Source: Escherichia coli (GTDB lineage Bacteria > Pseudomonadota > Gammaproteobacteria > Enterobacterales > Enterobacteriaceae). From it: a DNA stretch of 64,000 nt. Shown piece by piece: positions 14,582 through 20,241 of this stretch (positions are counted from its first letter, which is position 1; each line of letters opens with the position of its first letter). Under the pieces are notes generated by a model that was given only the letters and a program-made list of their open reading frames with translations, did not search any database and was not told where the DNA came from. Position numbers and translations under genes: made by a program. Where the stretch lies: assembly GCF_024502345.1 (NCBI RefSeq), contig NZ_JALDNN010000001.1; one strand, given 5' to 3'.

Positions 14582-15316
14582 CAGGATGAGGTGCACACTC
14601 TGGTATGGGTGTCACCTGCCAGAAAAAGCATTGACCTTCGAGCGTATTTCGCCGATAAACAGGGATCCGCCTCATGAGCGGGTCTGAATGCTAACGTTTC
14701 TCTACATCCTTCCCGGTGCCTTTGCCGGGTTTTTTACATCTGTAGTCTCGTTTTCTGGAAAATATTCGTTTCCCTGCCATAATCATAGCAGGCAGCCATT
14801 TGCCGGGCGGCATCGGGTATGCCGTCAGATACCTGAAATTCCTGATAGTGTAGTTTTACGGGCGGCTCCGCCCGTTTTTTTTGTCTTCCCGGAAGGGGGC
14901 ATTTAAAGTGGTGCTATGCATAATACGCAGGTTCGCTAACACCTGTGCAGGTGTTGTTATTAACCATAAGGCCTCTACGCGCACCGCTCAGAAGGCCTGA
15001 GAGCGTTTCAGCGGTACGCGTAGAGGCCTTATGGTAAATAGCCTATGCTAATGTCCGCTAAGAGCTGTGAGTTCAACTGATGGACGCAACACACTTATTG
15101 AACCGTTCTGCGGGTGATTCATAGTCTAGGCTTTTTCTCGGCCTTTCGTTGAGCTGTCTGGCAACACTGTTAAGTCTTTGCTGGCTGTGAACCGATAAGT
15201 CAGTTCCTTTTGAAAATACTGCCTGAGCAATCTGTTTGTATTTTCATTGGAGCCGCGTTGCCAGGGGGATTGAGGATGGCAGAAGTAAACCTGAATATCT
15301 GTGGCTACAGTAAACT

Positions 15317-15654
15317 GTTGTGGTCAACTAAAACTGGCCACCTGAACAGAGGTGATATGCTCACCTCAGAACAACACAGGTGCCATAATGAAAAAAAGAA
15401 ATTTCAGCGCAGAGTTTAAACGCGAATCCGCTCAACTGGTCGTTGACCAGAATTACACCGTGGCAGATGCAGCCAGCGCTATGGATGTCGGCCTTTCCAC
15501 AATGACGCGATGGGTGAAACAATTACGTGATGAGCGGCAGGGAAAAACACCAAAAGCCTCCCCCATTACCCCGGAACAAATTGAAATCCGTGAGCTCAGG
15601 AAAAAGCTACAACGTATTGAAATGGAAAATGAAATATTAAAAAAGGCTACTGTA
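15317..15654 (+). mobile_element. IS3-family (IS911-like) 5' fragment with truncated orfA (from 15388)
   Basis: IS3-type end tgtggtcaactaaaactggccacctga; Orf[53 protein letters not shown]... interrupted after ILKKAT by the IS30 end. Confidence 0.6.
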
Positions 15655-16875
15655 GATTCAATCTGTCAATGCAACACCCCTTTCAATTATCTCTTTCGGT
15701 GTTTTGAACTTCAGTGTCTTTCTCGGTCTGTTGTTTAGCTGAGCAGCAACCAGATCTAGTTCATGTTGAGTATATTGGGCAAGACATGTCTTTTTAGGAA
15801 AGTACTGCCGAATTAGCCCATTTGTATTCTCATTTGTTCCCCGCTGCCAAGGACTCTGAGGATCGCAGAAGTAAACTTTAACGCCGGTGCTGACAGTAAA
15901 TTCTAGATGTCTGGCCAGTTCCATTCCTCTGTCCCATGTCAGTGATTTTCTGAGTTCTGACGGTAAACTCAGGAATTTGTCGGTAAGAGCCTGATTTACT
16001 GAGACAGAATCTTTGCCCCTGAGTCTGAGGATGATCGTATAACGTGATTTTCGGTCTACAAGTGTGGCTATATGAGAGTTTTTTGTACCTGAGACTAAAT
16101 CGCCCTCCCAATGCCCCAGAGAGCGTCTGTTATCGATATTTCGGGAACGTTCGTGAATTGGTGTTCCGTTCACTATGTTAATCGTACCTCTTTCGCCTTT
16201 GCGGGTATGACGCCTGCCATGGCGAAGGCTATGCGACCGTCGCAGATGCTGTATATTCAGGTGGTGTAGCGCTTCACGGCTACGAAAGTACAGCGTTTTA
16301 TAAATTGTCTCAGGTGATATTCGCAGCGTTTTTTGACGTGGTTTTGTTCGCCTTAACCATCCTGATATTTGCTCTGGAGACCATTTCATCTCCAGCTTTT
16401 CCAGAACAAGCTTTCGCAATGGTAAATTTTGATCCAGTAAGCACGGTTTTGGCCTTTTCGCCATTCTGTTGGCTCGGTTATTAGCATCAACAGCTTTGTA
16501 ATAGCGTCTGCCCCGATTACGCTGAACTTCACGTGAGATCGTCGAAGGACTGCGATTCAGCGCAGTAGCTATCGCACGAATGCTCATTTTGGCTGACAAA
16601 CCAGCTCGTATCTCCTCGCGCTCAGACAGTGTCAGGTGAGCTACAGCCCGCTTACGCTCATGGGGTTTTATGCCGCCAGTATCCCTTAACATAGTGAAGA
16701 TCGTTCCGGGTTTTGAACCCAGGATATTCGCTATTTCACTGAAGCCTGTTCCGTTCTTCCATAGTTCAAAAACAGAGGCTTTTTCCTCTGCTGTAAATGT
16801 TCGTCTCATTCAAAAAACCTCCGCAACCCCATGTTTTCACATAACTGTTGCGTTGACCAATTGAATCTACAGTAG
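15655..16875 (-). mobile_element. IS30 insertion sequence (complete)
   Basis: 1221 bp; ends tgtagattcaat... at both termini (inverted); transposase ORF stops 3 bp inside the left end. Confidence 0.8.
15658..16809 (-). CDS. insI: IS30 family transposase
   Basis: 383 aa, [46 protein letters not shown]..., DDE domain. Confidence 0.9.
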
Positions 16876-17214
16876 CCTTTTTTAATATCGTATTTTGCTC
16901 CTCCAGACGGCGAACCTGCTTTTCCAGCTCGCGGATACGTTGCTGGTCTGGAGTAATGGGTGTGGCAGAGGGCGTAATCCCCTGGCGCTCTCTCCTGAGC
17001 TGGCGTACCCAGCTCTCAAGCGTAGTAGAACCCACATTCATCGCTTCACTGGCCTGTCGATATGAGTAGCCCTTATCAACAATCAGCTGTGCACATTCCA
17101 GCCTGAACTCAGGGGTGAAACTACGTTTGGTTTTCTTGTTCATTAAGTCACCTGTTTTGTGTTGAGGTGAGAATATCACCTTTAATCAGGTGGCCAAATT
17201 TACTGTGCCACTAC
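16876..17214 (-). mobile_element. second IS3-family 5' fragment (inverted orientation) with truncated orfA (17143 down to the IS30 junction)
   Basis: Orf[56 protein letters not shown]... also broken after ILKKAT; IS3-type end at 17180-17214. Confidence 0.55.
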
Positions 17215-17517
17215 AAGCCGCCTTATATTCACCAGCAGGTTTTTCATCAGTGAAACGGCGCGTCCCACAGAGAGAATTTCAATAAACAGGTTAAGGTCGT
17301 TTTGTTTCAGGTAGTTCAGGAAGTCTGGCTCACTGAGACTTTCCCCTGCCTCCTCGTAAAAGCAGGCAATCGCTTCCATGTTATTCATGTAGGTGCTGAT
17401 TGCGGCGTACTCGTGTCCTTCCATCTGTTCAAGGATGACCCTGACAGACTGCATCCGGTCGGTCAGTTTCGCATGTATGTCTGCATATTTAGCCTGACGG
17501 GGATTTATTTCACTCAT
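17200..17517 (-). CDS. hypothetical small protein (105 aa)
   Basis: ORF with ATG start; no recognisable motif; 3' end abuts the IS3 fragment. Confidence 0.35.
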   Translation of the reverse strand: MSEINPRQAKYADIHAKLTDRMQSVRVILEQMEGHEYAAISTYMNNMEAIACFYEEAGESLSEPDFLNYLKQNDLNLFIEILSVGRAVSLMKNLLVNIRRLVVAQ

Positions 17518-17616
17518 TATTACTGTCGCCTGTAAATAACCGGCACAGTGCGAACACCATGCCGGGAGATTATGGCTGACAAAACGGGAACGACAGGATC
17601 CCGCTGTTGTCGGGGG

Positions 17617-18689: not shown

Positions 18690-18748
18690 CGGAGTAACTT
18701 GTCAGAAACATCAATCTTCGTCATCATTTCAAAGAAAAATAATTAGTT

Positions 18749-18780
18749 AAAGCAGTCCGGGCTGATTGCCCGGACTGCTT
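18749..18780 (-). terminator. terminator downstream of integrase
   Basis: aagcagtccgggc-tgattg-cccggactgctt hairpin immediately after the int stop, followed on the minus strand by a T-rich run. Confidence 0.5.
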
Positions 18781-18781
18781 A

Positions 18782-20044
18782 CTATTTTAATGGATTGTTA
18801 ATCTTTGCATATTCAAACGGACTGATACCCTTCTCCCGGTTCGCATCCAGAAAATCGGCCCACCATTGCAACATCAGTCGCCGTTCTTCCAGATGTTCTG
18901 CTTTATGGATATACGCAGCACGTACACCATTACGCTCCTGATGGCTCATCTGACGTTCCACAGCATCGCGGGACCACAAACCTGATTCAATCAATGCACT
19001 GCACGCCATCGCCCGGAATCCATGGCCACAGACTTCCTGGGTTGTGTCATACCCCATCACCCTCAGGGCTTTATTTACAGTATTTTCACTGATTGGTTTA
19101 CGCGGGTCATGTGCACCCGTAAATATCAGACCATTTTCACCTGCCCATGTCTGAAGTTCTGTCAGTATGGCTACAGCCTGTTTGCTGAGTGGCACAAGAT
19201 GTGGTGTTCGCATCTTGGAGCCCCGGTGTGAGAATTTTACGCCGGGCAGAGGTTCGCGTTCGGCTGGAATAGTCCACATGGCATTGTCAATATCAATTTC
19301 AGACCACCGGGCGTATCTGAGTTCACTGGAACGAATAAAAACCAGTAAATTCAGCGTAACGGCAAGCTGGGTGACAGGTTGCCCCTTGTAACTGCTAATA
19401 CGCGACAAAAGTTCAGGCAGGCGAGAAAGATCAAGAGCGGGGCGATGCTGGCGTTTTACAGTGGTCAATGCGCCAGCCATATCCAGAGCAGGATTATATC
19501 TGATGATGCCAGACTGTACGGCATAACGCATTACAGCAGATATTCTTTGCTGCAGACGACTGGCGATTTCATAAATTTGTTTAGCTTCTGCGGCACGAAC
19601 AGGGATAAGCAGGTCCGGGGTACGGAGTGTTGTGATATCCCGGTTGCCGATAAAGGGGAAAACGTGTGTCTCGAGGCTTTTGAGTACTTTATCGCTGTGT
19701 GATTGTGCCCATTGTTTATTACTGGCATGCCAGCGTCGTGCAATATGTTCAAAAGAGAGTTGTAAATCAGGGACTACTTTTTTAGCTCTTTTTTGTTCGC
19801 AAGGGTCAACCCCCTCCGAAATCAGTTTTCGGGCCTCATCCCGTTTTGTACGAGCTTCGGAGAGAGAAACTTCCGGATACACACCAAGTGCCAGGGTTTT
19901 CTCCTTACCCAGAATACGATAACGGAGACGCCAGTAACGGGAACCATTAGGATGAACCAGCAGGAACATGCCGGCCCCGTCAGTGAGTTTATAAGCCTTG
20001 TCAGTGGGCTTTGCAGCCCGGATTTTTGCGTCAGTCAGTGCCAT
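18782..20044 (-). CDS. P4-type tyrosine integrase
   Basis: 420 aa; N-terminal arm-binding (DUF4102-like) region MALTDAKIRAAKPTDKAYKLTDGAGMFLLVHPNGSRYWRLRYR... and C-terminal catalytic core with HxxR and Y. Adjacent to the partial tRNA-Phe copy. Confidence 0.85.
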   Translation of the reverse strand: MALTDAKIRAAKPTDKAYKLTDGAGMFLLVHPNGSRYWRLRYRILGKEKTLALGVYPEVSLSEARTKRDEARKLISEGVDPCEQKRAKKVVPDLQLSFEHIARRWHASNKQWAQSHSDKVLKSLETHVFPFIGNRDITTLRTPDLLIPVRAAEAKQIYEIASRLQQRISAVMRYAVQSGIIRYNPALDMAGALTTVKRQHRPALDLSRLPELLSRISSYKGQPVTQLAVTLNLLVFIRSSELRYARWSEIDIDNAMWTIPAEREPLPGVKFSHRGSKMRTPHLVPLSKQAVAILTELQTWAGENGLIFTGAHDPRKPISENTVNKALRVMGYDTTQEVCGHGFRAMACSALIESGLWSRDAVERQMSHQERNGVRAAYIHKAEHLEERRLMLQWWADFLDANREKGISPFEYAKINNPLK

Positions 20045-20241
20045 AGTTCAGCCTTCTGAATGCGTTAAAGAGGGTACAAATTCTGTCGAACTGGGGTATA
20101 CCCGCAATTATACCCACACAATGGGGTTGATGTGGGGGGAATCTGGTTGAGTTCGGTAGAATTGATTTGGAGGCAGAACGCTTAAATTGTGGCGTTCTGA
20201 AACGAAAAACGGACCTCCGTGGAGGTCCGTTGATATGAATT

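Follow-up and report, generated by a model that had tools for sequence, protein, structure and literature searches.

The analyzed window, a stretch of 64,000 nucleotides from Escherichia coli (contig NZ_JALDNN010000001.1), is located at the tRNA-Phe pheV locus, where yqgA, speC and nupG represent the flanking genes. From the intact tRNA gene leftward, the following features were identified:

39806-39881, minus strand: intact tRNA-Phe gene pheV (ARAGORN), flanked by yqgA and speC
20291-39805, minus strand: inner island with a type I restriction-modification system and its own 394-aa tyrosine recombinase
36974-38158: gene of this tyrosine recombinase (394 aa), with NCBIfam recombinase matches
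20242-20290, minus strand: displaced tRNA-Phe 3' fragment (tRNA nt 28-76), an exact copy of 39806-39854
20045-20241, minus strand: spacer from the tRNA fragment to the start codon of the integrase gene; just past the tRNA end it contains a G+C-rich hairpin and then a T-run
18782-20044, minus strand: integrase of the outer island, 420 aa, P4-type (intP4 type), intact
1-14536, no strand given: cargo of the outer island, its leftward continuation, which extends past window position 1

The displaced tRNA-Phe fragment repeats the intact gene over 49 nt (50 bp including the flanking T at 20241), a match obtained by chance in 0/100 shuffles, and ARAGORN made no tRNA call on it. For the inner island, this fragment serves as the distal att repeat; its final 23 nt (20242-20264) form the core repeat of intP4-type islands, which makes the fragment a remnant of the tRNA-proximal att site of the outer island as well. 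The distal copy of this core is absent from 1-20241, and the outer island runs off the window. The original prediction had reported no further tRNA-Phe repeat, and a search for degenerate copies of its 3' end, run with 23-mer and 16-mer queries at up to three mismatches, with the published attR variants (the 1-nt deletion form among them), by blastn-short and by fuzzy matching, also revealed no third copy anywhere in the window, even with up to four edits. In strain ECONIH4, the distal end of the outer island adjoins cadC and shows a 95.6% match to window positions 20128-20264. The spacer (20045-20241) is 100% identical to the ECONIH4 spacer between intact pheU and the integrase gene, and positions 20128-20290 share 97.5% identity with the pheU flank of K-12 derivatives.

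A complete P4-type integrase is indeed encoded just outside the partial tRNA-Phe repeat, as originally predicted; its gene starts 197 bp from the 3' end of the 20242-20290 fragment and lies on the same strand. The 420-aa protein harbors three Pfam domains (Arm-DNA-bind_3, PF13356; Phage_int_M, PF22022; Phage_integrase, PF00589) with E-values ranging from 2e-29 to 3e-16, and motif inspection found all candidate catalytic residues (R238, K277, H341, R344, H368, Y378). The NCBIfam integrase domain PRK09692 also matched, under its curated cut-off. On the DNA level, the gene is 100% identical to that of WP_001218854.1 in ECONIH4, and 3,328 of the 5,426 complete E. coli genomes contain a family member that spans at least 80% of the query, nearly always adjoining an intact tRNA-Phe. 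For the analysis of its neighbourhood, 60 hits spread over the whole similarity ranking were sampled, 37 of which cover at least 95% of the query. In 35 of these 37, the integrase abuts an annotated full tRNA-Phe gene (pheV or pheU) without the inner island, and the displaced form occurred only in G3/10 and PKF8. Judged from its intact gene and the adjoining 23-nt core, the integrase may in principle still act on the outer island.

The stretch from 14537 to 18689 is rich in IS elements and remnants:

18015-18689, plus strand: IS1 truncated by 93 bp at its beginning, with loss of the left inverted repeat and the start of insA; NCBIfam transpos_IS1; right inverted repeat kept at 18667-18689
17617-18017, minus strand: C-terminal stub of a methyl-accepting chemotaxis protein (MCP) gene, about 133 codons, ended by the IS1 junction
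17200-17517, minus strand: 105-aa ORF accompanying the MCP gene; its 2021CK-01361 counterpart is annotated as hypothetical protein WP_016243822.1
16872-17215, minus strand: IS3-family left end (terminal repeat and first ~90 orfA codons), cut by IS30; the NCBIfam transpos_IS3 match is confined to profile positions 1-84; with inverted-repeat pairs I1 and I2
15651-16871, minus strand: complete IS30 with a 383-aa transposase at 15658-16809
15318-15650, plus strand: left end of another IS3-family element, distinct from the one at 16872-17215; the NCBIfam transpos_IS3 match is confined to profile positions 1-82; with inverted-repeat pairs I1 and I2
15073-15317, minus strand: IS30-family transposase relic, frameshifted and without its N-terminus, as annotated by RefSeq (PGAP) in ECONIH4, whose sequence is 100% identical here (L003 32143-32387)
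14537-15072, no strand: spacer after the autotransporter gene, with a terminator-like hairpin at ~14556-14585 and a 31-nt inverted repeat (I3) at 14958-15040

The truncated IS1, the MCP stub, both IS3-family ends and IS30 had already been listed in the original prediction and were all recovered at or near their predicted coordinates. The IS30-family relic was absent from that list; it is interrupted by an IS3-family element, and its one-frame translation meets a stop codon, consistent with a pseudogene. The truncation of IS1 was defined relative to the complete 768-bp IS1 of ECONIH4 (L003 43624-44391), and its junction with the MCP stub shows a 3-bp microhomology (TAC). The stub itself is 99.8% identical to the end of a 560-aa MCP gene in the pheV island of 2021CK-01361 and is matched by NCBIfam MCP models at profile positions ~430-554 only; the neighbouring 105-aa ORF showed no NCBIfam match. 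The IS30 transposase was assigned by NCBIfam transpos_IS30 (NF033563) with 276 bits (cut-off 80), and the ends of the element at 15651 and 16871, which lie within inverted-repeat pair I1, were set by alignments to loci L004 and L008 and by the terminal inverted repeats. Both IS3-family left ends face IS30 and are cut by it at the same codon; we take the element at 15318-15650 to be IS911-like, and the one at 16872-17215 is seen in PI12 as a simple IS30 insertion. An Rfam scan of 14000-21500 detected nothing but the IS-associated isrC, as a full-length match (17025-17147, 140 bits) inside this latter fragment. The spacer at 14537-15072 is 100% identical to ECONIH4 and G3/10. The IS30 region as a whole is mosaic, its left part being identical to ECONIH4 and its right part 99.8% identical to 2021CK-01361. 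A simple allelic exchange with a pheV island of the 2021CK-01361 type was considered for the IS30-MCP block and rejected: there, the block is inverted relative to the tRNA gene, and one crossover would be insufficient.

In the original prediction, a decayed second module had been placed at 14583-20241. While the IS-rich stretch is real, the island also spans 1-14536, where the cargo is intact, and runs off the window; its boundary therefore belongs far to the left of 14583. The cargo of this part comprises mmuPM, tauABCD, an olsF-like acyltransferase gene, hemB, ISKpn26 and a gene for a 1016-aa autotransporter. Over its whole length, 1-14536 is 99.9% identical to 16 genomes, several of which were examined (ECONIH4 and the 0H series) and carry it in one island with the same IS1-integrase-tRNA-Phe end. 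The pheU island of ECONIH4 (NZ_CP026399.1, ~2,678,800-2,718,300) and the pheV island of G3/10 (NZ_CP060075.1) share 99.9-100% identity with the window over 1-16411 and 18015-20290, including the same succession of IS1, integrase, spacer and tRNA; for the single ECONIH4 island, the values are 99.9% for 1-14600 and 100% for 14400-16411 and 18015-20290. Because 1-16411 and 18015-20290 both match this one island, the outer island continues past the left edge of the window. In ECONIH4 and G3/10, ~10.2 kb lie between IS30 and IS1 (IS66, an HNH gene, IS3, a group II intron, IS110, a capsid gene and an integrase relic), in place of which the window carries 1.6 kb (16412-18014) matching the pheV island of 2021CK-01361. 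Unlike in the window, IS1 is complete in the ECONIH4 and G3/10 pheV islands and the integrase lies beside an intact tRNA gene. ISKpn26, the IS30-family relic, the two IS3-family ends, IS30 and IS1 separate cargo modules that recur in other islands.

Based on these results, a large mosaic tRNA-Phe island of the intP4 type (GI-pheV/GI-pheU) very probably has its tRNA-proximal end at 14583-20241 and has been displaced from pheV by the unrelated island at 20291-39805. In GI-pheV islands, intP4 was described as the sole conserved gene, directly adjoining pheV, in islands that have direct repeats of 19 or 23 bp and modules flanked by IS elements; intP4 islands were also reported to co-evolve with the chromosome (PMC11537424, PLoS Genet 2024). 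The outer island resembles them in its P4-type integrase, encoded in the orientation of tRNA-Phe and ~200 bp downstream of it, in the 23-nt tRNA 3' core as att repeat and in its mosaic cargo of IS-bounded modules with an autotransporter module. Unlike in GI-pheV, the tRNA sequence beside the integrase is here just a 49-nt fragment, owing to a second island that separates the integrase from pheV, and the distal repeat is located beyond the window. The GI-pheV detection rule (pheV, intP4 and upstream gene) would probably overlook the displaced island, and island finders requiring intP4 beside an intact pheV would probably miss islands displaced by a second insertion.

The overall order, with a regenerated tRNA gene, an island, a displaced tRNA fragment and a next island with its own integrase, is that of the tandem arrays which are standard in the Islander database, as are separate crossover sites in the anticodon loop and the T-stem (PMC4383910). 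Both crossover positions were used here, the anticodon region leaving the 49-nt and the T-stem region the 23-nt repeat, so that two integrase families share one tRNA gene. The inner island carries both its own integrase (36974-38158) and its own tRNA fragment (20242-20290); the outer island has its own intact integrase, and its own fragment would fall to the left of position 1. We see no difference in kind from the Islander arrays, the tRNA fragment of the outer island lying off the window. The arrangement is real but ordinary; intP4 islands at pheV and tandem arrays at tRNA genes have both been published, and its significance beyond correct annotation is small.

The reading of the integrase at 18782-20044 as part of a separate element in tandem at the same tRNA, already proposed in the original prediction, is supported by the relatives of the inner island. 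This island is 19.5 kb in size, and at least 80% of it is held by 29/5,426 complete genomes. In USMARC-51408, a relative stands alone between pheV and yghD with the same 49-nt repeats at both ends; because this copy has no P4-type integrase at its far end, the tandem reading gains support. Likewise, the integrase is absent from the relative in ES1, and beyond the relative at pheU of MLI023K1 only a 160-bp integrase relic is found, so that relatives of the 20291-39805 island do not always carry it distally, contrary to the observation that the original prediction had named as refuting. At pheV of TUM2820, a relative forms a tandem with another intP4 allele, and the cargo differs as well. By these comparisons, the inner island is self-contained and independent. 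An assignment of the integrase at 18782-20044 as the cognate, distal-end integrase of a single island is extremely improbable, although it lies just 197 bp from the distal repeat and a P4-type integrase occupies that place also in the relatives G3/10, TUM2820 and NT1F34: its gene is not enclosed by the direct repeats, an integrase of its own is encoded within the inner island, and, besides the three relatives lacking it, 35/37 sampled near-full-length matches show it beside an intact tRNA-Phe without the inner island.

For the two separate elements, the following history can be proposed. An intP4 island would have integrated into the 23-nt T-loop/acceptor core of tRNA-Phe, placing its integrase ~200 bp downstream of the regenerated tRNA gene. 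The 19.5-kb island would then have used its own 394-aa recombinase to enter the anticodon-stem/loop position of the same regenerated gene, thereby restoring pheV at 39806-39881; the former 3' 49 nt (20242-20290) and the complete intP4 island would have been shifted away by 19.5 kb. For the IS-rich stretch, mosaicism is evident; it could have arisen by nested insertions, of an IS3-family element into the IS30-family relic and of IS30 into the former, followed by an exchange at IS30 and an illegitimate deletion with 3-bp microhomology, which would have fused the MCP stub to the decapitated IS1.

It is likely that the outer intP4 island is older than the inner one. The order of age is not readable from the map, because integration in reverse order yields an identical one: the restriction-modification island would have come first and the intP4 island, hence younger, would have entered the 23-nt core inside the distal 49-nt fragment, where the full core is present as a potential target. 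The 99.9-100% identity of the outer island in unrelated strains at pheU and pheV, which points to recent movement or exchange, also speaks for this order. Nevertheless, we consider it unlikely, as it needs integration into a fragment despite an intact tRNA target on offer, intP4 islands occur in most E. coli and reportedly co-evolve with the chromosome while the inner island is rare (29/5,426) and sporadic at both Phe tRNA genes, and the outer island is far richer in IS elements. Somewhat more plausible, though still doubtful, is that integration in this lineage did not build the array: after transfer by transduction or conjugation, homologous recombination between identical tRNA-Phe genes, IS copies or island backbones would have brought in the finished array or replaced its left part. 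This would fit the presence of the same outer island at both pheU (ECONIH4) and pheV (G3/10), the junction at 20060-20420 that is 100% identical in NT1F34 and three other strains with differing cargo, and the IS30 region composed of ECONIH4-identical left and 2021CK-01361-like right parts (99.8%). However, such an import alters only where the tandem junction arose, and an integrase-made junction is still needed once. No near-clonal relative of the strain by which the two integrations might be ordered phylogenetically is found among the 5,426 complete genomes (best identity over the 24-kb core flank 99.2%).

With a 23-nt core in both the displaced fragment and the regenerated pheV, the outer integrase might excise the outer island alone or both islands as a composite, and the array would then have grown by accretion, with a defence island hitch-hiking on an intP4 island that also carries a captured Enterobacter chromosome block; we give this scenario little credence.

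Among complete E. coli genomes, 0 records cover at least 80% of the exact 6-kb arrangement, the nearest match being PI12 with 63% coverage. The tandem junction itself recurs: at least 80% of the 361-bp query (20060-20420) is held by 55 genomes, and about 21 span it fully among the matches listed, including NT1F34 with yet another cargo. At pheV of G3/10, the two kinds of islands are present in reversed order, which fits repeated integration into a regenerated tRNA gene. The pheU array of the same strain (NZ_CP060075.1, ~4,434,000-4,460,000) shows the same junction of integrase, partial tRNA and inner island with 98.6% identity over 18015-20400 and IS1 beside the integrase. In contrast to the window, this array is located at pheU, and the place that the IS graveyard and the Enterobacter-like block would occupy behind IS1 is taken by a TetR gene, transporters and a BREX system.

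The window contains one intact tRNA-Phe gene (39806-39881, minus strand), which was identified as pheV because it sits between yqgA-speC-nupG and foreign DNA. The stretch 20242-20290 is an exact duplicate of nucleotides 28-76 of this gene (50 bp with the flanking T at 20241 included), and none of the shuffles in a control matched this repeat (0/100). Left of this displaced fragment and in the same orientation lies a 420-aa integrase ORF (18782-20044, minus strand), whose start codon is 197 bp past the 3' end of the tRNA fragment. Its domain composition (Arm-DNA-bind_3, Phage_int_M and Phage_integrase) is that of P4-type integrases, and motif inspection showed that the candidate R-K-H-R-H-Y residues are all kept. 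This integrase family has members in 3,328 of the 5,426 complete E. coli genomes. In a spread sample of hits covering the entire ranking, the match ran directly into an annotated intact tRNA-Phe (pheV or pheU) in 35 of 37 near-full-length rows.

Next, we investigated whether this integrase could instead be the cognate enzyme of the inner, type I restriction-modification island (20291-39805). This was ruled out, as relatives of the inner island do not always carry the integrase at their distal end. The inner-island family is present in 29 of the 5,426 genomes at ≥80% coverage, and the island encodes its own 394-aa tyrosine recombinase (36974-38158). USMARC-51408 carries this island as the sole occupant of the interval from pheV to the core gene yghD, with the same 49-nt repeat as its borders. 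In MLI023K1, it occupies pheU and only a 160-bp integrase relic adjoining cadC remains past its far end. The original prediction of a separate element thus held. Since the inner island and the intP4 element each occur without the other in other genomes, they are independent, and they stand in tandem in the window.

Within the inner island, 33205-38158 holds two tyrosine recombinase genes, of 436 aa (plus strand) and 394 aa (minus strand), with a small Arm-DNA-binding ORF and a DUF927 gene between them. This block is conserved among relatives, whose defence cargo is exchanged (variants of type I R-M, an AAA ATPase; TIR and ABC-3C genes in G3/10). At the distal tip of the island, a 114-aa ORF (20568-20912, minus strand; RefSeq name "5-fold beta-flower protein") consists of six 16-aa tandem repeats (KDDRLRTIATFDGKTL), the last of them degenerate.

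Both elements target one tRNA gene, at different positions. The inner-island repeat begins at tRNA nucleotide 28, within the anticodon stem; the repeats left by intP4 islands measure 19 or 23 nt and come from the T-loop/acceptor end (PMC11537424). Islander treats these two regions as separate crossover classes and lists 125 tandem arrays in its set of 3,919 islands (PMC4383910). Assuming the tandem model, it is quite likely that the outer island arrived first: an intP4 island would have been resident at pheV, and the inner island would then have integrated into the regenerated tRNA, displacing the former 3' 49 nt and, with them, the intP4 island. An inner island resident first, followed by an intP4 island entering the displaced fragment, predicts an identical map, and the fragment does include the 23-nt core. 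This reverse order is less favoured because the fragment would have been hit while an intact target was present, because intP4 islands are widespread and mostly passed on vertically (PMC11537424; genome counts) whereas the inner island occurs rarely and sporadically, and because IS damage is greater in the outer island. A close relative of the strain, sought in the genome set to order the events phylogenetically, was not found.

Tandem island arrays at tRNA genes are textbook knowledge. A 361-bp junction query was at least 80% present in 55 genomes and fully spanned by about 21 among the matches listed, and the integrase-side cargo at the junction varies among G3/10, TUM2820 and NT1F34. Both island orders exist in nature, since at pheV of G3/10 the intP4 island comes first and an inner-island relative lies beyond it. 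This G3/10 pheV array (NZ_CP060075.1, ~812,000-900,600; extracts L011, L007 and L012) spans ~88 kb and comprises at least three accreted elements: a frameshifted intP4 with the same cargo as in the window, then a CP4-type module, followed by an inner-island-backbone relative that bears TIR and ABC-3C genes and by another N-terminal integrase piece.

The limits originally proposed for the outer module (14583-20241) proved too narrow. ECONIH4 is 100% identical to 14400-16411 and 18015-20290, and its counterparts of these stretches and of 1-14600 all lie within one ~39.5-kb island from pheU to cadC (int, IS1, autotransporter gene, ISKpn26, hemB, olsF-like gene, tauABCD, mmuPM and a CP4-type cbtA/yafW module); G3/10 carries the same island at pheV, even longer. 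Therefore, 14583-20241 is only the integrase-proximal, IS-ridden end of the outer island. Positions 1-14600 are 99.9% identical to 16 genomes, and the cargo at 1-14536 is intact, not decayed. A search of the window found no third tRNA-Phe repeat, as had been noted by eye; this would be explained by a distal att repeat of the outer island lying left of the window.

The outer island seems to hold a captured piece of Enterobacter chromosome, ending at ISKpn26 (10298-11278). The tauABCD, olsF-like acyltransferase and hemB genes (3640-10150, within a wider block at 1-10297 with a GC content of 0.60) show 93-95% identity to Enterobacter cloacae complex chromosomes, and E. asburiae TN152 matches at 94.8% over 6.5 kb. 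In the search with 1-14600, the best match of most records fell between 80 and 90% identity; these were taken to be E. coli's own copies. The G3/10 copy of the island has additional appCBA, ykgEFG, dld and lldP copies.

All elements listed for the IS region in the original prediction were located. The full set of features is given below, from right to left.

Features of the IS region (14537-18689)
18015-18689, plus strand: IS1 without its first 93 bp
17617-18017, minus strand: final ~133 codons of a chemotaxis-receptor (MCP) gene
17200-17517, minus strand: 105-aa ORF, function not assigned
16872-17215, minus strand: left end of an IS3-family element
15651-16871, minus strand: complete IS30
15318-15650, plus strand: left end of a different IS3-family element
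15073-15317, minus strand: IS30-family relic
14537-15072, no strand: unassigned spacer

Both IS3-family fragments are left ends facing one another across IS30, and they are cut at the identical codon, 6 nt past the TTAAAAAAG frameshift motif (ends 15634-15650 and 16872-16888). This suggests that IS3-family orfA is an insertion hot spot for IS30, with subsequent recombination between IS30 copies. In both PI12 and 2021CK-01361, IS30 sits as a simple insertion in an IS3-family element, one half of which is the right-hand fragment, and the 2021CK-type right junction is found in the window at 15650-18017 with 99.8% identity. The left-hand IS3/IS30 junction is identical in ECONIH4, where IS66 interrupts IS30 at the point matching 16411. 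The window thus joins an ECONIH4-type left to a 2021CK-type right junction, which fits recombination between two copies of IS30. At 18015-18017, MCP sequence meets IS1 position 94 through a 3-bp microhomology (TAC); this join looks like an illegitimate deletion rather than a transposition. A full-length match to Rfam isrC (RF01387; 17025-17147, minus strand, 140 bits) overlies the 5' end of the IS3-family orfA fragment, and this "sRNA" family therefore looks IS-derived here.

All pieces of the feature show 99-100% identity to annotated RefSeq sequence, and the island type is the already published GI-pheV (PMC11537424). None of the 5,426 complete genomes contains the exact 6-kb arrangement, but it amounts to a trivial recombination product of modules already known. 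Overall, the predicted feature is real and, its narrow bounds aside, was mainly well interpreted, but it is ordinary.

The spacer between integrase and tRNA (20128-20290) shares 97.5% identity with the native pheU flank in K-12 derivatives, and the 160-bp integrase relic also adjoins cadC in ECONIH4 and PI12, as in MLI023K1 (sites in local coordinates: 6482-6860 of L003, the ECONIH4 extract, and 4778-5237 of L005). On account of this spacer-like flank and the relic by cadC, E. coli's "empty" pheU site is itself the remnant of an intP4 island.
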